From assembly GCA_964650645.1 (NCBI GenBank), contig CAZYUH010000001.1:639202-703201 (forward strand): DNA of 64,000 nt. The letters are read 5' to 3'. Below the pieces are notes generated by a model that was not told the origin of the DNA, made no database searches, and worked only from the letters and a program-made list of their open reading frames with translations. Made by a program: the position numbers and the translations under genes. The stretch's first letter is position 1, and every line of letters starts with the position of its first letter. Below, one piece after another: positions 6,364-63,600 of the stretch. The DNA comes from an uncultured Candidatus Saccharibacteria bacterium. Its GTDB lineage: Bacteria; Patescibacteriota; Minisyncoccia; Phycocordibacterales; SBAW01.

Positions 6364-9195
6364 CTACGCTACCACAAGCGCGGCTATTTTGCCCGGCACG
6401 TAGAGCGCCTTCTTTTCCTCCTTTCCGTCGAGCCATTTGGACGCGGCGGCGCGGGCGGCGGCAAGCGCCTCCGCTTCGGTCGCATCGGGCGCTATGGAGA
6501 TAGTGGCGCGCACTTTGCCGTTCACCTGCACGGCAATAGTGACGCTTTCCTGCGCCAGCTTCGACGCGTCGGCCTCGGGCCACAGTGCTGTGTGCACCGA
6601 GCCCTCGAACCCTGCCGTGCTCCACAGCTCTTCCGTTATATGCGGCGCGAACGGCGCCAAGAGCTTTAAAAACGCCTCCCACTGCCCGCGGCCTATCGCT
6701 TTGGCGCTCTCCGCGGCATTGAGGAATATCATCATCGCGCTCACCGCCGTGTTGAATTTGAACGAGGCGATGTCGCCGCCCACCTTGGCAACGGTCCTAT
6801 GGAGCTCCGCCTCAAGCGCCTCGACCGGCGCGTCCCGCACCAAGCTCTCCAGTTTCCATACGCGCTCTATGAAGCGGCGCGAGCCGGTCAGGTTCTCGGT
6901 GCTCCAGCGGATCGTGTTCTCGAACGGGCCCATGAACATCTCGTAGATGCGGAACGCGTCGGCGCCGTGCTCGGCCACCACGTCGTCCGGGTTTATGACA
7001 TTTCCGTAGCGCTTGCTCATCTTGCGGCCGTCCTCCGCGAGGATGAAGCCCAGGAACTCGAGCCGCGCGAAGGGTTCAATGGTCGAGACCGCGCCAATGT
7101 CGTAGAGGAATTTGTGCCAGAAGCGCGCGTATATGAGGTGGCGCACCGCGTGGTCGCCGCCCACGTACACGTCGACGGGCGCCCAATACTTCTCCTTGTC
7201 GGGCGCCACGAGCGCAGATGCATTATGCGGGTCCATGAAGCGCAGGTAATACCACGAGGAGCCCGCCCATTGCGGCATGGTGTTGGTCTCGCGCCGGGCG
7301 GGACCGCCGCATTCGGGGCACGTCGTATTGACCCACGACTCTATGGCCGCCAAGGGCGATTCGCCGGTGCCGGAGGGCTCGTAGCTCTCGACTTCGGGCA
7401 AAAGGACCGGCAATTGGTCCTCAGGAACGGCTACGGCGCCGTCCTTGGGGCAATGGATGATCGGGATGGGCTCGCCCCAGTAGCGCTGGCGGCTGAAGAC
7501 CCAATCCTTGAGCTTGTAATTGGTCGTCATTTTCCCGCCCACGGCCTCGGTAATCGCGCGCCTGGCTTCCGCACTCTCCATGCCGTCGAATGCGCCGGAA
7601 TTGATGAGGTAGCCCTGCCCGGCAATCGCCTCGTCGCGGTGCAGCAGGCGCCACACGAGCTTTTGGTGCTCAGGGGTGAGGCGCGACGCGACTTCGGCCT
7701 CATCGGCCCATGCGAGCGTGTGGAGCGCCTGCTCGCGTTCGGATATGCTGCCCTGCCCCTCAAGGCCGTCGACTTCGGCGAGGAGAGCCCATGCGTGCGC
7801 GCAGCGGTTCTCGTTCTTGTGCGAGGCGAAATAGCGGGCTGCGGTAATCCAGGGCGCCAATTTTATTATCTTCACGCCCTCCAGCGCGGCTTCTTCCTTA
7901 ATTTCCGCAAGAGCGGCCTGCTCGGGCGTCTGGCCCGGCTCTATGCCGCCCATAATGGCGGTCGTAAGCCCTTCAAGCGAGCCGTGCCAATCCAAAAGGG
8001 CGAATTTGCCGGTGTGCTTGTCGCGCAGGTGGACTATTACCGTGTCGCGCTTCACTTCTTCCAGGCCCGGCTCGGGCGGATTGTCCGCGTCCGCCTCGCA
8101 GGGCACGACGACTTGCCTGACAGGCAGGCCGAACTTCCGGGCGAACTCAAAGTCGCGCTCGTCATGCGCAGGCACGGCCATGATGGCGCCTGTGCCGTAC
8201 TGACCAAGCACGTAATCGGCGATAAATACGGGAATCTCCTCGTTGTTCGCCGGATTGACGGCCTTGATTCCCTTCAATTCCACGCCGGTCTTCTCTTTTG
8301 CCGCGCCGCGCTCAATTTCGGTCTTTTGCTCGGCCGCTTTCGCATAGGAAAGCGCTTCATCCCGGTTTTCCACCCTGTCTGCCAGCTTTTTTACAAGCGG
8401 ATGCTCGGGCGCCAGCACCATGTACGTGGCGCCAAAGAGCGTGTCGGCGCGCGTCGTAAACACGCGCACCTTCTCGTTAGAATCCTTGAGCGCGAAGTCT
8501 ATCTCGGAGCCTTCCGAGCGGCCTATCCAGTTCCTTTGGGCCTCCTTTATGTGCTCGGGCCACTGGAGCTGGTCGAGGTCGGCGAGCATGCGGTCGGCGT
8601 AGTCGGTTATTTTGAGCACCCACTGCGGCAGGCGCTTCTTCTCCACCTTGGTGCCGCACCGCTCGCATTCGTCGCCGTCGAGGTCCTCGTTGGCGAGCCC
8701 CGTCATGCATGACGGGCACCAGTTGATGGGCTCATCGCTCTGGTACGCCAGCCCCTTCTTGAACATCTGCAGGAATATCCATTGCGTCCACTTGTAGAAC
8801 TCCGGATCGGTCGTGTTTATCTCGCGGCTCCAGTCGTAATCGAAGCCGATATTGGCCAATTGCTCCTTGAACGTGGCGATGTTCTTTTGGACCGCCGCGC
8901 GCGGGTGCACCTTGTGCTTTATCGCGAAATTCTCCGCCGGAAGGCCGAACGCGTCCCAGCCCATGGGGTGGAGCACGTTGTGCCCGCGCATGCGCATGTG
9001 GCGGCTGTAGATGTCGGTGGCGATGTAGCCTTTGGGGTGGCCTACGTGGAGCCCTTCGCCCGAGGGGTACGGGAACATGTCGAGCACGAACGTCTTGGGC
9101 TTCTGCGAGCCGTCCTCCGCCCTGTAAATGCCGCTTGCGGCCCAGGCATCCTGCCACTTCTTCTCTACCGTACGGTGGTCGTATGGCCCCTTCAT
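6364..9195 (-). CDS. leuS: Leucine--tRNA ligase
   Basis: HIGH-type motif region (PYPSGEGLHVGHPKGY), KMSKS, full-length class I LeuS similarity; 943 aa. Confidence 0.95.
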   Translation of the reverse strand: MKGPYDHRTVEKKWQDAWAASGIYRAEDGSQKPKTFVLDMFPYPSGEGLHVGHPKGYIATDIYSRHMRMRGHNVLHPMGWDAFGLPAENFAIKHKVHPRAAVQKNIATFKEQLANIGFDYDWSREINTTDPEFYKWTQWIFLQMFKKGLAYQSDEPINWCPSCMTGLANEDLDGDECERCGTKVEKKRLPQWVLKITDYADRMLADLDQLQWPEHIKEAQRNWIGRSEGSEIDFALKDSNEKVRVFTTRADTLFGATYMVLAPEHPLVKKLADRVENRDEALSYAKAAEQKTEIERGAAKEKTGVELKGIKAVNPANNEEIPVFIADYVLGQYGTGAIMAVPAHDERDFEFARKFGLPVRQVVVPCEADADNPPEPGLEEVKRDTVIVHLRDKHTGKFALLDWHGSLEGLTTAIMGGIEPGQTPEQAALAEIKEEAALEGVKIIKLAPWITAARYFASHKNENRCAHAWALLAEVDGLEGQGSISEREQALHTLAWADEAEVASRLTPEHQKLVWRLLHRDEAIAGQGYLINSGAFDGMESAEARRAITEAVGGKMTTNYKLKDWVFSRQRYWGEPIPIIHCPKDGAVAVPEDQLPVLLPEVESYEPSGTGESPLAAIESWVNTTCPECGGPARRETNTMPQWAGSSWYYLRFMDPHNASALVAPDKEKYWAPVDVYVGGDHAVRHLIYARFWHKFLYDIGAVSTIEPFARLEFLGFILAEDGRKMSKRYGNVINPDDVVAEHGADAFRIYEMFMGPFENTIRWSTENLTGSRRFIERVWKLESLVRDAPVEALEAELHRTVAKVGGDIASFKFNTAVSAMMIFLNAAESAKAIGRGQWEAFLKLLAPFAPHITEELWSTAGFEGSVHTALWPEADASKLAQESVTIAVQVNGKVRATISIAPDATEAEALAAARAAASKWLDGKEEKKALYVPGKIAALVVA

Positions 9196-10358: not shown

Positions 10359-13202
10359 ATGAAGATTAGTTATAAATCCGCAGGCATCGCCCTGTTATTA
10401 GCGTTCCCGTTCCTCGGTTCCGCAGCCACTACCAGCGATATCCCCCTTACCTTCAACGACGCCGTGTTCAGCGGCGTTACGAATTCAGGTTCGGTGAATC
10501 TGCCTAACGGCGGGATGCTCTCCAATAAGAGCATCACCGTTGACGGCCCCGCCGCCTCGGTCCTCTGCCAGGGCTCCTGCGTCCTGGAGCGCGTGCGCGT
10601 CGACTCCGCCGAAGCCGTCCGCGTCGGCGGCAGCGGCACGGTAATGATTAACAACTCGTACCTCGAGGCTACCGGCTCGGGCGACGACCACGCGGACACC
10701 ATCCAGGCCTACGCGCCGGGCGACCGCGGCACTATCAGCATCTCCAACACGTCCATAGTCGCGCACAACACCGCCGCGACCGCGGGCCTCTTCGTGGCCG
10801 ACAACTGGACCGGCACCATCAATCTCAACAACGTGGTCTTTAACGGCGGCCCGTTCGGCCTGCGCCTCCACCCCGACACGGGCGGCGACAACATCATATA
10901 CGCCAAGGATGTCTACTTCGTGGGACCCTTCGGCTATAACCCGATCCTCATGAGCGACTACGGCGGCCATAAGAACATCATCAAGCAGTGGGAGAACGTG
11001 CGCCATGCGACGATCGTGAACGGCAAGCTCGTCCCCGGCGATCTCATCCCCTGCCCGGTTTCAAGCTGCGGCAATGAGTCGTCTCCGACCACCCCCACTA
11101 CCCCGACTACGCCCACGACGCCGACTGCTCCGGCTTCGACTAAGTTCTCGACCGGCAGCCGCGTGCAGGTAGTGAACGGCCCGCTCAACGTGCGCACGGC
11201 CGCCACCACGGCCGCCACCCTGCTGGGCTCCCAGACAAACGGTTCCGCCGGCACCGTCGTGGGCGGCCCCACGGCTCAGGGCGGCTACATTTGGTGGAAC
11301 ATCAACTACGACTCGGGCGTCGACGGCTGGAGCGTAGAGAACTACCTTGCGGCCTACACCGCGCCTACGACGCCGACTACTCCCACCACTCCAACGACCC
11401 CCACCACTCCGGAGGTCAAGGATATTGAAAAGCCCACGACGCCGTCCGGCCTTACCGCGACCGCGGATTCCTCTTCCCAGATCAGCCTCTCGTGGGAGGC
11501 GTCCAGCGACGACGTGGGCGTCACCGGCTACGAGGTGTTCCGCAACCGCAGGTATGTCGCCACGGCGGCGGGCACGACCTACGCCGATACGGGACTCTCC
11601 GACTCGACCACCTACAGGTACCAAGTGAGGGCCCTGGATGCCGCGAACAGGCACTCGTCCAAGTCCAAGGCCGCGAAGGCGAGGACCCTTGAGGACGGTT
11701 CGGCTCCCGCGACGCCGACGGAACCGACCGCTCCGACAGCCCCGTCCACGCCCACCTCAAGCACGGGAATCCCCCTCAGCTTCAACGACGCCATGTTCAG
11801 CGGCGCCGAGAATTCGGACGCGGTCAGGCTCTCTAACGGCGGATCCGTGAGCAACAAGAGCATTACCGACACCGGCGATACCGCATCGGTCGTCTGCACG
11901 GGCGCGTGCACCGTCGACCGCGTCCGCATCAGTTCGCGCGAGGGCGTCCGCGTCGGCGGCAGCGGCACCGTCAGCATCAATAATACGTATATGGAGGTCA
12001 ACGGCACCGGCGACGACCATGCGGACGGCATCCAGGCCTACGCGCCGGGCGACCGCGGCACCATAAAGATGCGCAATTCCACTATTGCCATGGGCACCAC
12101 GGCCGTTAACTCCGCGTTCTTCGTCGCAGACAACTGGACCGGCACTATCGACCTCGAGAACGTCGTCATCAAGGGCGGCCTGTACGGGTTCCGCGTCCAC
12201 CCCGACACGGGCGGCGACAACACTATCTCGATGAAGGACGTGTACTTCGTCGGGCCGTTCCAGTACGGCCAGATCCTCATGACCGACGTTGCGGGCCACA
12301 AGAACAACATCGTCAAGTGGGAGAACGTCCGCAATGCGACGATCGTGGACGGCAAGCTCGTCCCCGGCGCGCTTATCCCCTGCCCGGCTTCCAACTGCGG
12401 CAGCACGTCTTCAAGCGAGCCGGAAGACCCTGAGCCGGCCCCGGCGACTCCTGAAGAGCCCGCTCCTTCGCAGCCGTCCGCTCCCGCTCCTTCAAGCGGC
12501 AGCGTCTCCTCGCTCTGGAGCGCCTCCGATACTCCCGTAACCGCAAGCGATCCGGATACGAACGCGGTCGAGCTGGGCATGAAGTTCTCGACCAACGTCG
12601 CGGGCAAGGTAACGGGCGTGCGCTTCTACAAGGGCTCCCAGAACACCGGCACGCACACCGGCAGCCTGTGGTCCTCTTCGGGCAGCCTCCTTGCGACCGG
12701 CACGTTCACTAACGAGAGCGCTTCGGGCTGGCAGACGCTTACCTTCTCGTCTCCCGTCAGCATCTCGGCGAACACGACCTACGTGGTCTCCTACCACACC
12801 AGCGTAGGCAGGTACGCGGGCGACAAGGACTACTTCGGCAGCGCGCGCACCAGCGGCCCCATTACGGCGCCCAGGAACGCGGGCGTGTACAAGTACGGCG
12901 CGGGCGGCTTCCCCACCCAGTCGTACGAATCGAGCAACTACTGGGTAGACGTGCTGTTCGTGCCGGAGGGCGTAGTCGCGGGCGCATCCTACTCTCCGCT
13001 GGCTATCGGCGACACGGTCAAGACCAAGGCGAACCTCAACGTGCGCTCGGCGCCGGGCGGCGCGGTCGTGGGCGTAGCGTCCCTTGGCTCTGCCGGAGTG
13101 GTGCAATCCGCGCCGCAGTCCGCGGGCGGCATCACGTGGCTGCGCGTCACGTACCAGAACGGGCTCAGCGGCTGGAGCTCCGCCGGGTACCTGACCCGCT
13201 AG
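10359..13202 (+). CDS. Large secreted multi-domain surface protein: 2x pectate-lyase-like beta-helix domain, PT-rich linkers, SH3b, fibronectin-III, DUF4082, C-terminal SH3b
   Basis: Signal peptide MKISYKSAGIALLLAFPFLGSAAT; two ~215-aa paralogous domains (IPLTFNDAVFSG... and IPLSFNDAMFSG...); TPTTP repeats; FN3 (ISLSWEASSDDVGVTGYEVFRN); DUF4082 signature (VELGMKFSTNVAGKVTGVRFYKG...NYWVDVLF). Confidence 0.7.
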   Translation: MKISYKSAGIALLLAFPFLGSAATTSDIPLTFNDAVFSGVTNSGSVNLPNGGMLSNKSITVDGPAASVLCQGSCVLERVRVDSAEAVRVGGSGTVMINNSYLEATGSGDDHADTIQAYAPGDRGTISISNTSIVAHNTAATAGLFVADNWTGTINLNNVVFNGGPFGLRLHPDTGGDNIIYAKDVYFVGPFGYNPILMSDYGGHKNIIKQWENVRHATIVNGKLVPGDLIPCPVSSCGNESSPTTPTTPTTPTTPTAPASTKFSTGSRVQVVNGPLNVRTAATTAATLLGSQTNGSAGTVVGGPTAQGGYIWWNINYDSGVDGWSVENYLAAYTAPTTPTTPTTPTTPTTPEVKDIEKPTTPSGLTATADSSSQISLSWEASSDDVGVTGYEVFRNRRYVATAAGTTYADTGLSDSTTYRYQVRALDAANRHSSKSKAAKARTLEDGSAPATPTEPTAPTAPSTPTSSTGIPLSFNDAMFSGAENSDAVRLSNGGSVSNKSITDTGDTASVVCTGACTVDRVRISSREGVRVGGSGTVSINNTYMEVNGTGDDHADGIQAYAPGDRGTIKMRNSTIAMGTTAVNSAFFVADNWTGTIDLENVVIKGGLYGFRVHPDTGGDNTISMKDVYFVGPFQYGQILMTDVAGHKNNIVKWENVRNATIVDGKLVPGALIPCPASNCGSTSSSEPEDPEPAPATPEEPAPSQPSAPAPSSGSVSSLWSASDTPVTASDPDTNAVELGMKFSTNVAGKVTGVRFYKGSQNTGTHTGSLWSSSGSLLATGTFTNESASGWQTLTFSSPVSISANTTYVVSYHTSVGRYAGDKDYFGSARTSGPITAPRNAGVYKYGAGGFPTQSYESSNYWVDVLFVPEGVVAGASYSPLAIGDTVKTKANLNVRSAPGGAVVGVASLGSAGVVQSAPQSAGGITWLRVTYQNGLSGWSSAGYLTR

Positions 13203-15203: not shown

Positions 15204-16919
15204 CTAATCCGCTACGCGATACAAGTCAACACTGGGGGTGCTGATAACTTTCTCAAGCGCCGCAGAGCCCAAAAAGGGATACGAATAGGGGTCGTCATGG
15301 GCCTCGTCGGGGGTGTATATCACGTACCTGATCCCGAGGCCCGCTAATAATCTCAGTGTTTCGTCCGGATCGGCGTCATTGTCGGTAATGGCCGCCGAAA
15401 GGCGCGCGTACCCGGGGAGGCGCGACTGCTGTCCGCCGTCGCCTACTTCCCCTATTTCGGCACTCGCACCCTGATAAATGGTACAGTCGAAATATGAAGA
15501 TGAGGTGTTGGCCGTTAATAGACGGTTGTTGAAAACCGGCGTGTAGTACAGGTGCCAAGGGAGAAATACCGCCGCACAAGCATCATCCCGCTTCAATGTA
15601 TCGTTCACCGTTGCCCACCCGTCCGGGTACCACACGGGCCGTAATTGGCCCGCCAGGCCGAAGAGCGTGGTGGGCGTATACAAGAGCGGGATGCAGCACA
15701 GCGCGGCCATAGCCAAGCGCGGGCGCTTGAAGCGGCTGGCAATGTAACCTGCGCCCAATCCTCCTACAAGCGCGTACGCGAGCACCAACACGGCGCTCCA
15801 CTTCTGCGTATCCCTGAAGCCGCTCCAGAACGGCACATGATTGAACATCCATGCGTTGGCGTTTTGGAATATGCCCGGCCCGATGCCGGAGGAGAACACG
15901 AGCGCCAGCGCGCCTGCGCCGCACAGCCACAGCACGATAAAGCGGTTGCCCCGCCTGCGCAGGCCCGCGACAACTCCCGCGCACACAACGCCCGCAAGGG
16001 CGATGCCTGACAGCGCCCAGAGCAGGCCGCTCTCTTTAGGCCAGGCAAAGTACGTGATCCAGCGCTCGTGCTCGCCCCAAAAGCCGTACAGCGCCGCTAC
16101 GTTCCCTGCCGTGCCCAGTACCGGGTCGCTGGCGGTATAAAAGGCCCGCACGTCGCCCGCGCCGAAGTCGCTCAGCGCCGTTGCGGGCGCCGCAAAGGCC
16201 GGCACGAGCCAGTACAGGCTCGCAAGCGCAAATAGCAGACCGCAGGCGCATAAGCGGCCCAGGAGCGCCCGCGCCATGCGGTACTCCCCCGCGCACAGCA
16301 TGCGCGTTACGGAGGCCAGCGCGAATACGGCAAGCAGGACGCATCCCATGACCATAATGTGGAGCGAGAACATGCCCATGCATAGGAGCCACGCGCAGGC
16401 GTGCAGGGCGTGCCGCCACGCAAGGGTCCTGTACAGGCGCGTCAGCGAGCACGCGAGGGGGAACAGGAAGGCGTACGCCATGAGCACGCCCCACTGCCCC
16501 GCCAACATCCGCTCGTATACGAACGGGTTAACGGCGAACAGCGCCGATGCGAAATAGCGCCCAGCCCGATGGTCCTCGAACGGATAGAAGCGCAGAGGCA
16601 GGTAAAAAAGCAAATAGAACAGCCCGAACAGGATGCCCTTCTGGATGACCCAGACGGGCATCCAAAAATGCAGGAGGTATATAAGGTACCTGTACGGAAA
16701 CGCCGCCGCCGAAAGCCCCTCGTATGAAGGGAACGCCGCGTGTGGCCCGAAGACCATGTCGAGCGTGAGCACATAGCCCGGTAACAGCATCTGCCAGAGC
16801 ACTACCACGGCGCCCAGCGCCGCGATAAGCGCATGCTTGTAGTACAGCGCCGCAGCGCCTGCGCACGCCTTTAATGCCAGCGCCTTTGCCGCCCACGCGT
16901 TTGCCAATAGCCTTTTCAT
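15204..16919 (-). CDS. Polytopic membrane protein, putative GT-C-fold glycosyltransferase
   Basis: ~12 TM helices followed by ~130-aa C-terminal soluble domain; start taken at MKRLLANAW (ATG 16919-16917), directly abutting a palindromic operator. Confidence 0.45.
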   Translation of the reverse strand: MKRLLANAWAAKALALKACAGAAALYYKHALIAALGAVVVLWQMLLPGYVLTLDMVFGPHAAFPSYEGLSAAAFPYRYLIYLLHFWMPVWVIQKGILFGLFYLLFYLPLRFYPFEDHRAGRYFASALFAVNPFVYERMLAGQWGVLMAYAFLFPLACSLTRLYRTLAWRHALHACAWLLCMGMFSLHIMVMGCVLLAVFALASVTRMLCAGEYRMARALLGRLCACGLLFALASLYWLVPAFAAPATALSDFGAGDVRAFYTASDPVLGTAGNVAALYGFWGEHERWITYFAWPKESGLLWALSGIALAGVVCAGVVAGLRRRGNRFIVLWLCGAGALALVFSSGIGPGIFQNANAWMFNHVPFWSGFRDTQKWSAVLVLAYALVGGLGAGYIASRFKRPRLAMAALCCIPLLYTPTTLFGLAGQLRPVWYPDGWATVNDTLKRDDACAAVFLPWHLYYTPVFNNRLLTANTSSSYFDCTIYQGASAEIGEVGDGGQQSRLPGYARLSAAITDNDADPDETLRLLAGLGIRYVIYTPDEAHDDPYSYPFLGSAALEKVISTPSVDLYRVAD

Positions 16920-28479: not shown

Positions 28480-28721
28480 CCCTTAGCGTAGCATGGGTTT
28501 TAGGCAGGTTGCCCGCCGGCCCGGCATTGCTGCGGCCGTCCACCAGTACGAAAAAACCTGCCTCAAGGCAGTCTTTCGTGTCTTTGTGGTCACAGATACT
28601 CCAGTCGCCGCCGCGACCGGATTTCCGCGCCCCCGACTCGCTCCCGCGCCTGCTGGCGCGGGGCCCGCTCCGTCTTCCACAAACGCGAAAGTGCATGCCC
28701 CGGCATGCACTTCTCGTCGCT
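28480..28721. repeat. tRNA-linked hairpin-array element, locus D (partial family member)
   Basis: Contains the family motifs ccgtccaccagtacgaaaaaacctgcctcaaggcag and ttgtggtcac plus nested hairpins (gcatgccccggcatgc); lies immediately 3' of tRNA-Ala(GGC). Confidence 0.5.
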
Positions 28722-28723
28722 TG

Positions 28724-28796
28724 TGGACCCTACCGGGATCGAACCGGTCACCTCTTCCATGCCATGGAAGCGCTCTACCAAATGAGCTAAGGGCCC
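28724..28796 (-). tRNA. tRNA-Ala (anticodon GGC)
   Basis: Minus strand GGGCCCTTAGCTCATTTGGTAGAGCGCTTCCATGGCATGGAAGAGGTGACCGGTTCGATCCCGGTAGGGTCCA; G3:U70, anticodon loop AT-GGC-AT; CCA not encoded. Confidence 0.85.
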
Positions 28797-36810: not shown

Positions 36811-36825
36811 ACTGGGACAGTATAG

Positions 36826-37103
36826 CGCAATGCCTTGCAGGGTGGCATTGCTCCGGCCGTCCAGTTTTGTCGTATGTGGTCACAAGTTCGTTTGCGCCGT
36901 CGCGCAAACGCCTCGCGACCCCGGCTCGCCGTCCCGCAAGTGCGGGACATGGCTGCGCCTTCCACTTTGTGGTCAGGGATATTTTCAGCGCCGTCGCGCT
37001 GAAAATTCCACGACCCTGGCTCGGCTGTTTTGCCTGCTGGCAAAACATGCCTCCGCCTTCCACCAGTACGAAAAAATCTGCCTCAAGGCAGATTATTTTC
37101 GTC
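36826..37103. repeat. tRNA-linked hairpin-array element, locus A
   Basis: Series of perfect tetraloop hairpins (GTTTGCGC-CGTC-GCGCAAAC; GTCCCGC-AAGT-GCGGGAC; TTTTCAGCGC-CGTC-GCGCTGAAAA; GTTTTGCC-TGCT-GGCAAAAC) separated by ccactttgtggtca-type flanks, ending in terminator ctgcctcaaggcag+T-tract abutting the tRNA 3' end. Confidence 0.6.
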
Positions 37104-37177
37104 TGGTGGACCCTGCGAGAATCGAACTCGCGCCTGTGCAATGCGAATGCACCGTTTTACCACTTAACTAAGGGCCC
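37104..37177 (-). tRNA. tRNA-Ala (anticodon CGC), CCA encoded
   Basis: Minus strand GGGCCCTTAGTTAAGTGGTAAAACGGTGCATTCGCATTGCACAGGCGCGAGTTCGATTCTCGCAGGGTCCACCA; G3:U70; D-arm atypical. Confidence 0.7.
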
Positions 37178-37178
37178 C

Positions 37179-37267
37179 GGTCGGGATGCCGAGAATCGAA
37201 CTTGCCTCCGGATACACGCACCCGGCGGCAGACCGGATACGCACCCTGCCATATTCGTTCGGAAGCT
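37179..37267 (-). pseudogene. tRNA-like fragment: duplicated tRNA-Pro 3' end (23-bp exact copy of T-arm/acceptor) plus degenerate body
   Basis: ggtcgggatgccgagaatcgaac at 37179-37201 is identical to 37269-37291; no complementary 5' acceptor strand and the T-stem is broken. Confidence 0.35.
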
Positions 37268-38394: not shown

Positions 38395-38616
38395 AATACT
38401 TTATTTTTTAAGGATTGTCAAGATTTATTTTGCCGTCCCGCCAGTGCGGGACATGGCTGCGCCCTGCACATGTTATTTGTGGTCAGGGATATTTTCAGCG
38501 CCGTCGCGCTGAAAATTCCACGACCCTGGCTCGGCTGTTTTACCTGCTGGCAAAACATGCCTCCGCCCTGCACATGTACGAAAAAACACCCAGCAGTGGG
38601 TGTTTGTTTCGTCATG
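38395..38616. repeat. tRNA-linked hairpin-array element, locus B (shares ~130 nt near-identical block with locus A)
   Basis: ccgtcccgccagtgcgggacatggctgcgcc...tttgtggtcagggatattttcagcgccgtcgcgctgaaaattccacgaccctggctcggctgtttt(a/g)cctgctggcaaaacatgcctccgcc; differs from locus A by 2 substitutions. Confidence 0.6.
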
Positions 38617-38690
38617 TGCACCCTTCAGGATTCGAACCTGAGGCCTCACCCGTGTGAAGGGTGCGCTCTAACCAACTGAGCTAAGGGTGC
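38617..38690 (-). tRNA. tRNA-Val (anticodon CAC)
   Basis: Minus strand GCACCCTTAGCTCAGTTGGTTAGAGCGCACCCTTCACACGGGTGAGGCCTCAGGTTCGAATCCTGAAGGGTGCA. Confidence 0.8.
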
Positions 38691-46081: not shown

Positions 46082-46450
46082 CTAGTGCCAAAAGAGAATT
46101 ACCTCCACATCGTTCGGCAGCTGGTGGATATAGGCCATGGCGGCCCTGTTCACGAAGTTCGTGTCGCTGGTAACGCGCACTTTCTTAAGGTCTTTCGCGT
46201 ACGCCCACGCCATTTCCCCCGCCGCGTCTTCGCGCTCGAAGACCACATCGCCCTCGACGTCTACAGCACCCACTCCCAAGCCCTCCGGGAGCGGGTAGGG
46301 CTCGAACGCGGGCTTCATTGCCATTTCGCCGTGCCGCTCCCTGAAGCCGGGAATCTGCCTGAAAATGTGCTCATCCCACGTAAGCATGAGATGGGTCTGC
46401 GAATACAGCTTCCTCCTTGCGGTCGCAAGGCTCTCGCCGAAGTCCGGAAT
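46082..46450 (-). CDS. Hypothetical protein
   Basis: C-terminal ~120 aa of ORF 46082..46756; upstream part of that ORF runs through the hairpin-array repeat and is discounted; exact start unresolved (ATG at 46387 or non-ATG). Confidence 0.35.
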   Translation of the reverse strand: MPDFGESLATARRKLYSQTHLMLTWDEHIFRQIPGFRERHGEMAMKPAFEPYPLPEGLGVGAVDVEGDVVFEREDAAGEMAWAYAKDLKKVRVTSDTNFVNRAAMAYIHQLPNDVEVILFWH

Positions 46451-46555
46451 GAGCGGTATCAGCTCCAGTGTCAGTATGCCCACGCTTGGTCCTTTCCAGT
46501 TGAAATAGCTGCTGGGTGGGATAATGGGGCTTAATTTTGCGGGTGTCAATGCGGA

Positions 46556-46892
46556 CGCGCGCCTATCTGGATATACAGCCGTCCACTTTATGGTCACAAG
46601 TTCGTTTGCGCCGCCACGCAAACGCCGCGTCCACCTAGCGCCTGCCGCAAAGCGGCATCGGCGCTTGCCTCCGGCACCGGATGAAAGGCAAAGCAGTTTG
46701 CCTTTCATCCCCGCCTCGCGGTTTTGCAAGTGCAAAACATCGCTGCGGCCGTCCACTTTGTGGTCACAAGTCGAATTTTTTCGTCAAAAAATTCGCTCGC
46801 GACCCCGGCTCGCCGTCCCGCCAGTGCGGGACATGGCTGCGCCTTCCACAAAACCAGAAAACCTGCCTCAAGGCAGGTATTTCTGTGTTTTG
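46556..46892. repeat. tRNA-linked hairpin-array element, locus C (longest copy)
   Basis: Two ccgtccacttt(g/a)tggtcacaag units each followed by a hairpin, plus a GGATGAAAGGCAAA-GCAG-TTTGCCTTTCATCC perfect 14-bp stem, a gtttgcgccgccacgcaaac hairpin and a GAATTTTTT-CGTC-AAAAAATTC hairpin; shares cgcgaccccggctcgccgtcccgccagtgcgggacatggctgcgccttccac with locus A; terminal cctgcctcaaggcagg+T-tract. Confidence 0.6.
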
Positions 46893-46965
46893 TGGACCCT
46901 ACCGGGATCGAACCGGTCACCTCCTCATTGCAAATGAGGCGCTCTACCAGATGAGCTAAGGGCCC
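46893..46965 (-). tRNA. tRNA-Ala (anticodon TGC)
   Basis: Minus strand GGGCCCTTAGCTCATCTGGTAGAGCGCCTCATTTGCAATGAGGAGGTGACCGGTTCGATCCCGGTAGGGTCCA; G3:U70. Confidence 0.85.
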
Positions 46966-59975: not shown

Positions 59976-62822
59976 TTAGAGCGTGGGTGCCACGGGCTCG
60001 GTGCAGGCAAGGTCGCGGATCTTGCGTATGGTCATGCCGGCAACCGTGCCCGTGGGGCGCGTCAGGCCCAGCGGCGCCAGGATGTCGGCGGCATACCTGC
60101 TTTGGAACGCGCTCACGGCTGCGAAGGTCTGCGGCCCGAAGAAGTTCGTGCCCGGAAGCGACGCGCCCTGGGTGTTGAGGAACCGCTGGAGCTTGGCGAC
60201 CTCGGGGCTCACCATGCCGCGGTAGAGGTTCTGCGTGACCGCGAGCGAGCAGTCGGTCGCGGCGCCCAGCACCGCGCCGCCCGTTCCTATATTGACCGTA
60301 CCCATCCCGAAGGCGGGCAGCATGGGCTCGCCGCTGCCCTGCCTGAACTTTGCGCCCGTAACAGTCGCGAAGTTGCGGTACGTTCCCGCCGTGCTTGAGG
60401 CTGCGAACTCGACCGAGTACGTGAGCGTTATCTGGTCGCCGGAAGCGAGGTCCTGGAGGTCCCACGAGCGGTGGTACATGATACCGCCCTCGGGAGTGAA
60501 GAGCGTATCGGCGAGCGTAGCGCCGTACAAGGGCCCTGCGTCCTTTGCGTTGGTCACGACCACTTTGTAGTCGACCACCTTGGGCGTCGTCGTGCTGATG
60601 CGCACCACCGTCTTCTCGACCGTGACGCGCGGCTCGTCGTTGGAGCTTGCGGGCACCGGCGGCGTGTTGTCGGGCTTGGCGACCGTCTTGGGGCGGGAAT
60701 CGCCGCCGCCTCCGCCGCCTCCCCCGCCGCCGCGACTGCCGCCGGACGAGGGCGGATTGACGACGTCGAGCAGGGCGACCGTGAACGACGCCTGGGCGCT
60801 GGAGGTATCGCCGTCGCTGAGCGCCGACACCGAGATGGGCACGGGCACGGACGTGCCCTGCGGGATGGAGCCCACGCGCGCCGTGTAGGTGAAGGTGCGC
60901 GACTCGCCGCGGCCCACGGTCGGAATATGCCACTCGCGGCCCTCGTCCGTGCGCACGCCGTCGGTATCGGTAAAGCTCAGCTGGTTATGGTCGAAGCCGG
61001 CCTTGAGCGTGATGTCGTCGGCGTCGCGGTCGCCGTTGTTAGTGATGGTGAAATCGTACGCGACGTCCGTGCCTGGGGTGACCGTGGCCGCCGTCGTCCT
61101 CGCCTCGAGCTCGAGGTCGGACCGGCCGAACGTGATGTCGCCGTTCCATTCGCCCAGCACGTTGAAGAGCGCGAATATCCAGTTGCGGCCGACGATGTTG
61201 GTGTTGATGAGATTGATGACGTTCGCGACGGCGTACGCGTCGCCTGTTATGACGTGCGCGACGCCATCCTCGGTGTAGGCATTGTTGTGTCCCGTATTCG
61301 CGGTGACGTCCACGTTGTTCTCTACCGCAGCCGCATTGGTCGAGGATGCGACGAAGGTCGATGAATTGAAGCAGTTGTTGACCGGCTCATCCTCGGGGTG
61401 GTCCGAACGGGGCTCCTTGCAGTTGGCACCTGCCGCGCCCTCGGGGTTCTGCGCGCCGCTCTGGTCGCCTACCGGCACATTATCCTCATCCACCTCCTCG
61501 TTAGTAACGAGCACCAGGGTCGAGGTCGAGGTGATGCCGTCGCGGGTGGCGGCATCGTACACGCGCTTAACATGCAGCGCGCCGGGCAAGCTCTTGACGT
61601 CGCCCCTCCACTCGCCCGCAACGCGGAACATGAAGAGCGCCGACGTGCCGCCCACGTAGTTGTTGTTGGCGTTGGTGTAGGTGGTGGCCTTGCTGTAGGC
61701 GTCGCCGGTCGAGACGATGCCGCTTCCCTCGCCCGTAGTCGAAGCGGTGTTAGAGCCGGTATCCGCGCCCGCGGTCGTGGTGCCGGTCAGCGCGAGCTGA
61801 TTCTCGTTGTAGACGCTGTAGGAGCTTGAATTCATCTCCGGCGCCGAGCCCTCGTGCGCGAAGAGCCGCCTGAAGAAGTCGTCGCCCGGCAGGGTGATGT
61901 CGCCGTTGAGGTCGCCGAAGCTGTTGAACGCCGCCAGGAGATAGCTTGAGTTGACTATATTGGTGTTGACCAGGTTGACCACGTTGGCGGCCGCGTACGC
62001 GTCGCCCGACGTTACGGACGCGTCGCCGGTATCGGTCGTGGAGGCCGTGTTGCCGCCCGCGTCGGCGCGGACGATGACGCTGTTGGTGACCGTCGCGGTG
62101 TTGCCGCTGAGCACGTTGATGTTGCTGGAGGTCGGGCAGGTCAGGAGCGTGCACTGCGCCTCGCCCGTCTCCTCGTTGACCGTCGGGGAATTGCCCGCCT
62201 GGCCCTCGAAGAAGTAGCCGAGGTCGTAATCGCGCAGGTCGAGCCCGGCCGGGAACAGCTGGTTGAGGAACAGCAGGAGGCCCTGCGAGTTGAATATGTT
62301 GGTGTTGATGAGGTTGAGCACGTTAGCGAACGCGAAGGCGCCGCCGGTCACGATAGTAGCCGTGCCCTGCCCGCCATCGGCGACGTTGGCGCCGGTAGAG
62401 GCGGTCGATGTGGAGAAATTGTTCACGAGCGCCTCGTTGGTCGAGGTTGCGGTGAATCCGGATGAGTTGAGGCAGCCGCCGTTCTCTGCCACCTGCTCGG
62501 CCGAGCAGGCGCTGTCGACATTGCTCGCGTCGTTCTTGTTGACGGAGTTCTCCACGGACGTGGAGGCGCTGGCGGCGCCCGTATCTATCGTGCCGCCCAC
62601 GTCGTGCTGGCCGCCCGTGCCGTCGCTCGAGGTGGTCGCGACGACCTGGCCCGCGTTGGCGCCAGGCGCGCCGTCGGTCGAGGTGGCGTTCTCGTTATCG
62701 GCGCGCACGGGCGCGGCGAGCGCAAGCGTCGCGGCGACAAGCAGGAGCGCCGCGAAAGAGCTGACAAGTACGGATCGCCTGAATGGTAGGTACGTCATGT
62801 AGGAATTAAAGTAAGCTGTCAA
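59976..62822 (-). CDS. Large secreted surface protein: four ~60-aa 'TGDAY...VNL(I/V)NTNI' repeats, DUF11-like domain, poly-Gly tract, C-terminal peptidoglycan-binding (PG_binding_1) domain
   Basis: Signal peptide; repeats at four positions; GGSRGGGGGGGGGGD run; C-terminus VAKLQRFLNTQGASLPGTNFFGPQTFAAVSAFQ matches PGBD. Confidence 0.6.
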   Translation of the reverse strand: MTAYFNSYMTYLPFRRSVLVSSFAALLLVAATLALAAPVRADNENATSTDGAPGANAGQVVATTSSDGTGGQHDVGGTIDTGAASASTSVENSVNKNDASNVDSACSAEQVAENGGCLNSSGFTATSTNEALVNNFSTSTASTGANVADGGQGTATIVTGGAFAFANVLNLINTNIFNSQGLLLFLNQLFPAGLDLRDYDLGYFFEGQAGNSPTVNEETGEAQCTLLTCPTSSNINVLSGNTATVTNSVIVRADAGGNTASTTDTGDASVTSGDAYAAANVVNLVNTNIVNSSYLLAAFNSFGDLNGDITLPGDDFFRRLFAHEGSAPEMNSSSYSVYNENQLALTGTTTAGADTGSNTASTTGEGSGIVSTGDAYSKATTYTNANNNYVGGTSALFMFRVAGEWRGDVKSLPGALHVKRVYDAATRDGITSTSTLVLVTNEEVDEDNVPVGDQSGAQNPEGAAGANCKEPRSDHPEDEPVNNCFNSSTFVASSTNAAAVENNVDVTANTGHNNAYTEDGVAHVITGDAYAVANVINLINTNIVGRNWIFALFNVLGEWNGDITFGRSDLELEARTTAATVTPGTDVAYDFTITNNGDRDADDITLKAGFDHNQLSFTDTDGVRTDEGREWHIPTVGRGESRTFTYTARVGSIPQGTSVPVPISVSALSDGDTSSAQASFTVALLDVVNPPSSGGSRGGGGGGGGGGDSRPKTVAKPDNTPPVPASSNDEPRVTVEKTVVRISTTTPKVVDYKVVVTNAKDAGPLYGATLADTLFTPEGGIMYHRSWDLQDLASGDQITLTYSVEFAASSTAGTYRNFATVTGAKFRQGSGEPMLPAFGMGTVNIGTGGAVLGAATDCSLAVTQNLYRGMVSPEVAKLQRFLNTQGASLPGTNFFGPQTFAAVSAFQSRYAADILAPLGLTRPTGTVAGMTIRKIRDLACTEPVAPTL

Positions 62823-62913
62823 CCCTCTCTGGGACCTTCTTTGCGGCTCAGTTGTACCGCAAAGCAGGCCTCATGAGAAGGGGGGAGCCTTGCTCCCCTT
62901 CTTCTCGAAGGAA

Positions 62914-63600
62914 CTAGATGCGAACGCGGAGGAAGTTCGTGTTGAGCACGTTGACCGCGCCGGAGCGGGAGGTCGAGTCGCCGGTGCGTACCGTGCCGCC
63001 CAAGCCGCCTGCGCCGCCATGGCCGCCTGCGCCGCCGGAGCCGGAGGTCGAGTCGCCCTGGTTGCCGGTCTTGTTGGCCGTGCCGGAGTTGCCGCCGTTG
63101 TCGCCCGAGCCGCCAGTGGAGCCGGCCGCCGCGTTGAGGCCGGTCGACGCGAGAGCGTTCGTGGTCTCATCGATGTCGCCGGTATTCTTCTGGCTCGCGG
63201 TTGCCGACGAGCTATTGAGGCCGCCGCGGATGCTTACGCGGGTGTCGTTGCTGTTGGCCTGGTTGACCGCGCCAGCCTCGGACATCGCAGCGCCCGTCTC
63301 TACCAAGCCGCCTTCGCCGCCGTTGCCGCCGTTGCCGCCAGAGCCGGCATTGCCGCTCTTGGCGTTGCCGTTGTCGCCGCCCTGGGAAGCATTGCCGGAG
63401 TTGCCGCCGTTGCTGCCGTTGCCGCCGGTCGAACCGTCCGCGAAGTTGAGGCCGGTGTTCGATACGGCGTTAGTGTTGCTCGTAACCGTGCCCGAGTTCG
63501 TGTTGCTGATCTTGATCGAGCTGCTATTGACCGCTGCGAAGGCAGGGGTCGCGGTTGCGAGCATGCCGAGCGCAGTAAGTGCTGCAAGAGTCTTTTTCAT
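62914..63600 (-). CDS. Secreted Gly/Asn/Ser-rich protein with two copies of the same 'NTN' repeat motif as the adjacent large protein
   Basis: Signal peptide MKKTLAALTALGMLATATPAFA; AVNQANSNDTRV and AVNVLNTNFLRV motifs after G/N/S-rich stretches. Confidence 0.5.
   Translation of the reverse strand: MKKTLAALTALGMLATATPAFAAVNSSSIKISNTNSGTVTSNTNAVSNTGLNFADGSTGGNGSNGGNSGNASQGGDNGNAKSGNAGSGGNGGNGGEGGLVETGAAMSEAGAVNQANSNDTRVSIRGGLNSSSATASQKNTGDIDETTNALASTGLNAAAGSTGGSGDNGGNSGTANKTGNQGDSTSGSGGAGGHGGAGGLGGTVRTGDSTSRSGAVNVLNTNFLRVRI

Follow-up and report, generated by a model that had tools for sequence, protein, structure and literature searches.

The 178-bp repeats distal to tRNA-Tyr in the tyrT operon of Escherichia coli correspond to rtT RNA, which is released from the tRNA transcript and whose function is unclear. 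In the RNase III stalks of rRNA operons, tRNA operons and phage early transcripts, the place where the precursor is cut is marked by a duplex of at least about 20 bp. On the DNA side there are the PATE and REP-BIME (REPIN) elements, mobilised by Y1 transposases: a guide of 4–5 nt by the foot of the hairpin pairs with the flanking target. The Patescibacteria, or Candidate Phyla Radiation (CPR) bacteria, have tiny genomes in which few regulatory RNAs are known. TIGR-Tas systems also occur in CPR bacteria; their TIGR units measure 36 nt and have two alternating repeats of 8–12 nt and 9-nt spacers which are not self-complementary, and the arrays adjoin the gene of Tas, a Nop-domain protein (PMC12045711). 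The rtT RNA of the tyrT operon is mentioned in bioRxiv 10.1101/2024.07.17.603846. Here we describe an array of hairpins found behind tRNA-Ala(UGC) in a 64,000-nt stretch of the genome of an uncultured Candidatus Saccharibacteria bacterium (contig CAZYUH010000001.1, positions 639,202 to 703,201). This whole stretch will be called the window and the array, in positions 46556–46892, will be called locus C.

It is very probable that locus C belongs to a conserved family of structured elements which trail tRNA genes. The region is well supported as one array of a conserved structured module present in CPR bacteria of the Parcubacteria/Paceibacteria type. The module is apparently undescribed, as we have found no description of such an element in the literature searched. 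It has two well-supported parts. One of them, H0, is a hairpin of about 22 bp, whose 5' arm is formed by the last four nucleotides of the tRNA, the next base and the trailer. The other part consists of at least one copy of a two-domain unit of about 95 nt, with the core GGC-GSA...GA-GCC-R-GGGUCG...UGACC-AC. The array starts at the first base past the tRNA gene. Its hairpins are minus-strand features directly 3' of tRNA-Ala(UGC), outside the 5' untranslated region (5' UTR) of the neighbouring open reading frame (ORF). The parts of the locus are given below. Units were scored with R1, a covariance model built from 50 units with 96 positions and 34 base pairs; its E-values are rough, the calibration having been shortened.

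46893–46965, minus strand: tRNA-Ala(UGC), the gene trailed by the array; CCA is not encoded and the base after the discriminator is C (46892); found by ARAGORN and by the Rfam tRNA model (64.2 bits)
46845–46896, minus strand: long hairpin H0, 52 nt; minimum-energy fold of tRNA, hairpin and unit (z = -8.15), with the same architecture at 73–78 other tRNA loci
46758–46849, minus strand: unit 1, intact, 92 nt; R1 87.6 bits, E = 9e-18
46675–46756, minus strand: unit 2, decayed; R1 40.7 bits, E = 3e-7
46588–46671, minus strand: unit 3, degenerate; R1 21.1 bits, E = 0.007, and direct sequence reading
46556–46586, minus strand: stump of a fourth unit, recognisable only by its head GUGGACGGC (46586–46578); direct reading, the other three arrays of the window ending in similar stumps

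The 5' arm of H0 in locus C begins with tRNA nucleotides 70–73 and the next base (UCCAC, 46896–46892) and goes on into the trailer; the 3' arm is the trailer complement and ends in GUGGA (46849–46845). Its top, ACCUGCC / loop UUGA / GGCAGGU (46878–46861), has an A-run before it and a U-run after it, and is terminator-like by scan. In unit 1 we find the 5-nt head GUGGA which matches the tRNA, a helix P1 (GGC/GCC), an internal loop GCA/GA and a domain P2: a 3-bp helix, an A-U bulge and the variable hairpin UCCCGC-ACUG-GCGGGA. The bases R-G come next, before P3, which is long and irregular: this hairpin has an invariant base (GGUCG/UGACC) and an invariant A in a bulge, its distal stem varies and its loop is GNCG. 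In unit 1 the P3 base reads GGUCGCGAG...CUUGUGACC, the variable stem is A/U and the loop GACG; the tail ACAA closes the unit. Unit 2 has an intact head (GUGGA) and P1/P2 domain and has lost its TGACCAC end. Its P3 is swapped for a 14-bp perfect hairpin, GGATGAAAGGCAAA-GCAG-TTTGCCTTTCATCC in plus-strand reading (46679–46710), which in the tRNA sense has a CUGC loop, as in most H0 hairpins of the family. In unit 3 the position of P2 is occupied by the hairpin GCGCCGAUGCCGC-UUU-GCGGCAGGCGC, or GCGCCTGCCGC-AAA-GCGGCATCGGCGC in plus-strand reading (46638–46664); a P3-like hairpin with the end UGACCAU is found in 46590–46635, and the conserved junction bases are gone.

The first-pass annotation had pointed out these two perfect stems as exceptionally stable, together with two copies of a flank gtccacttt[a/g]tggtcacaag (at about 46583 and 46751). 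All of them are present at the places which it gave. The stability is also far beyond chance, as the 337-nt region folds in the minus sense with -173.7 kcal/mol, versus -124.5 +/- 4.9 in shuffles (z = -10.1), and unit 1 has the R1 E-value listed above. The two stems turn out to be parts of decayed copies, because R1 places them in units 2 and 3. The flank is the junction between units, ...UGACCA(C/U)-AAA-GUGGAC.

All copies of the array in the window come directly 3' of tRNA genes and share their strand, the minus strand. The same repeats are found after three more tRNAs of this strand, namely Ala(GGC) at 28723, Ala(CGC) at 37104 and Val(CAC) at 38616.

28507–28727, minus strand: array after tRNA-Ala(GGC), R1 74.6 bits; H0 28727–28676, intact unit 28584–28680, a second hairpin at about 28540–28589, then a stump
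36820–37110, minus strand: array after tRNA-Ala(CGC), R1 100.9 and 89.4 bits; H0 37110–37059 (CCA is encoded here and is also paired), units 36967–37063 and 36874–36965, then a stump
38415–38620, minus strand: array after tRNA-Val(CAC), R1 97.9 and 15.8 bits; H0 38620–38569 with a CUGC loop, unit 38477–38573, truncated unit 38415–38469

Both units of the tRNA-Val array have the head GUGCA, which matches UGCAC in tRNA-Val. The fifth tRNA of the window, tRNA-Pro, lies just upstream of Ala(CGC); therefore all the tRNA transcription units of the window end in arrays.

Two peculiarities were seen beside these tRNAs. A 26-nt direct copy of the 3' end of tRNA-Pro(CGG), AGTTCGATTCTCGGCATCCCGACC, is found at 37178–37203 (minus strand), about 60 nt past the real tRNA-Pro, and abuts the 5' end of tRNA-Ala(CGC); it looks like a relic of an attachment (att) site or a tRNA fragment. 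In locus L001, from a sister strain, the same tRNA-Val(CAC) is followed, after GGGTGCAC, by an island (15392–16650, to be compared with 38415–38620 of the window) instead of the hairpin and units. The island carries a large serine recombinase (Resolvase / Recombinase / Zn_ribbon_recom), and its break point is the junction after CAC where the modules begin.

The family was collected with a seed pattern (GAGCCRGGGTCGYGR, a gap of 18–48 nt and TGACCAC) scanned over one genome per GTDB species, which gave at least 118 loci. The family counts rest on the 118 loci listed from this single pattern, and variant sub-families are under-sampled. R1 matches at least 117 + 27 copies (about 140) in 93 of the listed loci, which come from Zambryski-, Nomura-, Kaiser-, Yonath-, Taylor-, Campbell- and Adlerbacteria, from Paceibacterota/Parcubacteria and from unclassified metagenome-assembled genomes. 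The 25 listed loci from other phyla have no R1 match and are therefore chance matches of the pattern. A scan of the 2.9 million viral contigs of IMG/VR gave zero matches.

A second sub-family of units has the linker GGA(A/U)UCGAA(A/G), in a form with GGAAUCGAA, between the long hairpin and P1. These units have low R1 scores and are mostly found after tRNA-Gly, Ser, Arg(CCG) and Ile. Examples are L074 (7328–7421), L094 (6014–6108), L044 (after tRNA-Ala(CGC)) and L054 (after tRNA-Arg(CCG)). The family is therefore broader than the seed pattern shows.

The association with tRNA genes is nearly exclusive. Same-strand tRNAs lie at most 400 nt 5' of 104 of the 124 R1 copies: 78 copies start no more than 60 nt past the 3' end of the tRNA, and a further 26 no more than 400 nt past it. 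Most of the remaining copies are at locus edges or behind tRNAs missed by ARAGORN. Among units with a tRNA at 150 nt or less, 107 are on its strand (96 with the tRNA on their 5' side, 11 on their 3' side) and 1 on the opposite strand. Seven loci have units on both strands, a few kb apart, each behind its own tRNA.

The heads of the units are specific for the tRNA. At 63 of 78 loci the unit starts with five bases which exactly reverse-complement tRNA nucleotides 70–73 plus the next base, versus a mean of 14.4 and a maximum of 23 in 1000 permutations. GUGGA is found behind tRNA-Ala, GUGCA behind Val, GUGCG behind Lys, Ile and Leu, and GUGAC behind Glu. Unusual heads also correspond: GCGCG behind a tRNA with a G discriminator and UUGAC where the next base is A. 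The complementarity is sharply bounded, since the sixth position is paired in only 2 of the 63 cases. Of 35 later units in arrays, 21 retain the same head matched to the tRNA, versus 13.1 on average and at most 20 after permutation. The tRNAs which bear the module have A73 in 62 of 63 cases and C at +1 in all 63, and the units themselves end in ...ACC-A-C-A-A. We know of no precedent, among the described elements of tRNA flanks, for a tRNA-specific helix of fixed register with such a sharp 5-nt boundary.

H0 has a median of 22 pairs (range 16–30), 98% of them Watson-Crick, which include tRNA nucleotides 70–73; in the minimum-energy fold of tRNA, H0 and unit, the 3' strand of the acceptor stem is captured by H0. 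The loop is CUGC in 44 of 73 cases. Perfect hairpins with this loop occur 50 times on the same strand beside units or tRNAs; the opposite strand has none, and 634 kb contain a single one elsewhere. From this distribution it follows that H0 is a specific part of the module and not the general-purpose terminator of these genomes. Of 89 hairpins, 35 are terminator-like by a crude criterion (31 of 74 terminal ones and 4 of 15 internal ones). In 15 loci another tRNA is found at most 60 nt past the unit, in five of them at only 7–12 nt. In L031, where the order is tRNA-Arg, H0, unit, 9 nt and tRNA-Val, no promoter-like site is predicted in between; inside the units there is no consistent -35/-10 pair.

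Some arrays stand behind a stretch in which no tRNA was detected: L041 4570–4640 (minus strand), L007 about 60–135 and L119 about 7440–7500. The upstream stretch, which ends in ...AAAAGGTTCGCGCAAATGCTAGAATAACACCAC, is conserved, and its end is paired by the head of the unit in the same way. It has no Rfam family in any of the three loci; another stable RNA, or a tRNA which bears an intron, may have its 3' end here.

The structure of the units is under selection. In an alignment of 50 sequences made with MAFFT, 93.9% of the cells of the 34-pair structure are paired, versus 74.4% in column shuffles and 34–44% in slid controls. The covariation score is 0.548 versus 0.187 in shuffles, and none of 500 shuffles reached it. 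Unguided, RNAalifold found the same fold, with compensatory changes in 22 of its 31 pairs. Two-sided changes are present in 25 of the 34 pairs. In the 117 copies aligned by the model they are found in 33 of 34, P1 included, although this alignment is model-fitted and leans towards the structure. As an example, the P1 pair 8-75 is GC in 87 of these copies, CG in 15, AU in 8 and UA in 2. All four helices of the unit covary, and the loops GNCG and AGCA/AGUA are conserved together with the junction bases. Comparison of the window with the L001 sister strain gives the same picture at short range: the 14-bp hairpin stays paired through two compensatory double changes, and P1 has turned from G-C to C-G in a near-identical unit. 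Finally, there are 98 G-U pairs versus 10 A-C mismatches. This excess indicates selection for the structure on the tRNA-sense strand, whether in RNA or, in principle, in single-stranded DNA of that strand.

Other details of the fold were also studied. Columns 48, 55 and 91 of alignment A1 (at about 46802, 46795 and 46767 in unit 1), at the base of P3, change jointly. There are two types of P3 base, A, U, C (GAGCCAGGGUCGUG...CCUGACC) and G, C, G (GAGCCGGGGUCGCG...UGUGACC), and both are possible within one array. The linkage suggests a base triple or an alternative local pairing, as plain pairing of 55 with 91 is insufficient. The internal loop between P1 and P2 is not a K-turn: the positions of the would-be sheared G-A pairs covary as Watson-Crick pairs (13-42 and 14-41). 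A pairing of the CUGC loop with GCAG in the internal loop shows no co-variation across the loci of the window, by reading. In the whole window the gathering scores of Rfam 15 (4227 models) are reached only by the five tRNAs, and in 46450–46900 at E <= 10 we find only noise, of at most 17 bits versus cut-offs of 40–380 bits. Known ribozymes, RtT, HEARO and tmRNA were ruled out by the lack of Rfam signal; HDV-like, hatchet, twister and pistol folds also differ in topology by inspection. The units are not tRNAs or tRNA-like genes either, since neither ARAGORN nor the Rfam tRNA model calls them: only their last bases (a helix, then A, C) resemble a tRNA end.

Among the systems mentioned at the beginning, the nearest functional analogues are the rtT repeats and the RNase III stalks; PATE and REP are nearest in form on the DNA side. 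Like the rtT repeats, the module is a repeated, structured non-coding segment directly 3' of a tRNA. However, it has no match to them in sequence or structure, with nothing in Rfam at E <= 10. The tyrT repeats begin with a direct copy of the tRNA 3' end, whereas the module begins with a 5-nt inverted complement which forms a helix with the tRNA end; the family also spans a whole bacterial class and many tRNA species. The likeness to an RNase III stalk lies in H0, a duplex of some 20 bp or more between a stable-RNA flank and its downstream complement. It differs in that the duplex is local, takes up four mature tRNA nucleotides, carries the conserved loop CUGC and always abuts a conserved, structured 95-nt unit; in our case the cleavage is putative. 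The top of H0 in locus C resembles an intrinsic terminator, a G+C-rich stem-loop with a U-run after it and an A-run before it. Unlike a terminator, its stem runs past the U-run into the tRNA, and in the family the loop has a conserved sequence specific for tRNA flanks, fewer than half of the hairpins pass the simple criterion and the units are not terminators. As in TIGR arrays, tandem units which may encode RNA combine conserved and variable parts in CPR genomes. A TIGR or CRISPR array was rejected: the units have about 95 nt, their variable parts are paired hairpin arms and there is no Tas or Cas gene by the four arrays of the window.

We give a probability of about 0.5 to the interpretation that the module is transcribed with the tRNA, as an RNA trailer, and acts in the processing of its 3' end. 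That the element acts as RNA is somewhat better than an even bet; the specific mechanism which we now propose is tentative, and we hold it with less than even confidence. The module would be transcribed with the tRNA, either by read-through of the terminator-like H0 or as an internal spacer in tRNA operons. In the precursor, H0 would pull tRNA nucleotides 70–73 and the trailer into a long duplex which ends exactly at the conserved core of the unit. This fixed register would mark the 3' boundary of the tRNA for an endonucleolytic cut; the agent would be an enzyme specific for double strands, such as RNase III, or a factor which binds to the core. With this cut the tRNA would be released for trimming and CCA addition. 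The end of the unit (helix GGUC/GACC, then A, C and an A-rich tail) resembles the end of the tRNA (C72, A73, C and A-rich), so that the same machinery could split the arrays into monomers. Extra and decayed copies would arise by local duplication and turnover beside the tRNA. A bolder version, which we consider unlikely, is that the unit is the RNA half of a guide-directed system of tRNA 3'-end maturation specific to CPR bacteria. The head and the trailer complement would hold the tRNA 3' boundary in a fixed-register helix against a core which is catalytic or recruits a protein; the core would make the cut at the discriminator or the following base, either as a ribozyme itself or through a nuclease bound to it. 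If true, such a system would replace part of the RNase Z / RNase E route where tRNA genes do not encode CCA.

Several observations weigh against a role in processing. About half of the other tRNAs in the sampled loci have no unit. H0 has 1541 Watson-Crick pairs versus 27 G-U pairs and is equally stable on both strands, as would suit a DNA palindrome; the tolerance for G-T is also equally expected of single-stranded DNA. An H0 which is a good terminator may leave little read-through RNA. No nuclease is tied to the element. The copies decay, duplicate and are swapped between near-identical strains, which is unusual for an indispensable processing signal. We infer the transcription of the units, and the place of the module within the tRNA precursor, because the next tRNA may lie only 7–12 nt past the unit.

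The principal rival is a selfish, non-autonomous hairpin element in the style of the IS200/IS605 PATE or of REP/RAYT, which we judge about half as probable as processing. It would enter in the form of single-stranded DNA, directly 3' of the pentanucleotide found at the tRNA end (xxCAC); its 5-nt guide at the hairpin foot would pair with the target, and new copies would push older ones outward, where they decay. The arrays have much of the right appearance: they are short repeated, hairpin-rich intergenic sequences which act on one strand, with tandem copies and frequent decayed copies and stumps. All junctions lie 3' of CAC, whether at tRNA ends, unit ends or the serine-recombinase island of L001, and the head is a 5-nt complement of the flanking target. 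The heads in an array match the tRNA and not the preceding unit, as expected if the tRNA end had been the insertion site of each copy. Other strains, whose Ddl and tRNA-Ala are identical, differ from the window in trailer and first unit and share its distal units, copies at different loci of one genome are near-identical (95% for the D8 repeat), and H0 is a near-perfect palindrome. However, a 5-nt target is expected about once per kb, yet 104 of 124 copies are found at tRNA 3' ends, and the pairing takes place within a long cis helix. The orientation of IS200/IS605 elements tracks the direction of replication; here it tracks the tRNA, even with units on both strands within a few kb. The guide would need to be re-tailored for each tRNA. 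A multi-helix core conserved across the deep lineages from Zambryski- to Adlerbacteria is atypical for a miniature inverted-repeat transposable element (MITE) or REP, and viral contigs had no match. A tblastn search of about 0.9 Mb of flanks showed no Y1-transposase-like ORF (none below E = 0.8), a weak negative, obtained with two query sequences. The mobile and the processing interpretations are compatible: duplication and gene conversion could also spread a module which serves in processing. Integrative elements offer another DNA-level explanation, in which the arrays are scars of repeated integration and excision at the tRNA attachment site, with leftover att sequences. The 3' ends of tRNAs are classic integration sites, the island of L001 lies exactly at the tRNA-Val junction and the window has the 26-nt copy of the tRNA-Pro end. 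But integration should leave direct copies of the tRNA 3' end and we find a 5-nt inverted complement, the units are alike whatever the tRNA, with four covarying helices, and they are conserved across a whole bacterial class; we consider this origin very improbable.

If the element does act as RNA, the units might instead be free-standing small RNAs which borrow the promoters of tRNAs and their processing machinery; a protein would bind to their loops and core, or these would act in trans, for example on tRNA 3' ends through the head. The strong covariation, the conserved loops and junction bases, the 3' end like that of a tRNA and the units which form spacers inside tRNA operons are in agreement with it, and there are precedents in the rtT RNA of the tyrT operon and in the species 1 and 2 RNAs of phage T4. 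We find it rather unlikely, though a little less so than the guide-directed system, since H0 already pairs the head in cis, decay has affected many copies, the unit is absent behind half of the tRNAs of these loci and the expression of the units is itself conjectural. The first-pass annotation had suggested another RNA role for locus C, a structured 5' UTR leader which controls the transcription or translation of the ORF at 46082. The array is indeed upstream of this ORF, on the same strand, and highly stable. Two features between the array and the end of the ORF bear on this proposal.

46521..46549, minus strand: sigma-70-like promoter site TTGACA-17-CATTAT, the distal limit of the array, outside the element; 10 of 12 consensus positions
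46082..46483, minus strand: the real ORF, 133 aa, with a GTG start at 46483 and no Pfam family, outside the element; based on homologues and on the call in the sister strain

The promoter-like site lies past the array, between it and the start codon; both hexamers are kept in L001 with a different spacer. The homologues of the ORF begin at the position of the 133-aa protein. The genes downstream of the four arrays of the window are unrelated (no Pfam family, an acylphosphatase, a spermidine synthase and again no Pfam family), and elsewhere many arrays precede tRNAs. The invariable neighbour is the upstream tRNA. A riboswitch or 5' leader is not supported, and we see hardly any chance for it, even less than for the att scars.

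The other remarks on coding in this region were correct. A 224-codon frame, 46082..46756 (minus strand), does read through the array, and its N-terminal extension is not real. Five of its six homologues have 131–133 aa and cover only the C-terminal 58–59% of the 224-aa frame; the sixth has 179 aa, and the gene called in L001 has 133 aa. The mini-ORFs which begin with MSRT... are not coding either. The ATG inside GGAAGGCGCAGCCATG opens only a short reading frame: as RNA, this AUG consists of the conserved A-U bulge and of the G which closes P2. In 10 of 50 copies we find AUA instead, and the partner base has changed accordingly (a compensating U). Use of R1 in the annotation of CPR genomes would clear away such spurious N-terminal extensions and mini-ORFs. 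Its interest goes further, as a module of about 140 nt which stands behind some half of the sampled tRNA genes, frequently as several copies, and is conserved in sequence and structure across many Parcubacteria lineages, would be either an unrecognised step in the making of tRNA 3' ends in CPR bacteria or a new class of mobile hairpin elements which target tRNA flanks.

Some other repeats are found in the window. An ORF of 948 aa in 59976–62822 (minus strand) has DUF11 and a peptidoglycan-binding domain, with internal 59-nt repeats. Next to it, in 62890–63450, there are GCC-rich repeats with a 9-nt period, which on the minus strand would encode a Gly-rich protein. In 10440–12151 two adjacent segments with a spacing of 1329 nt are 73–78% identical and look like tandem paralogous genes.

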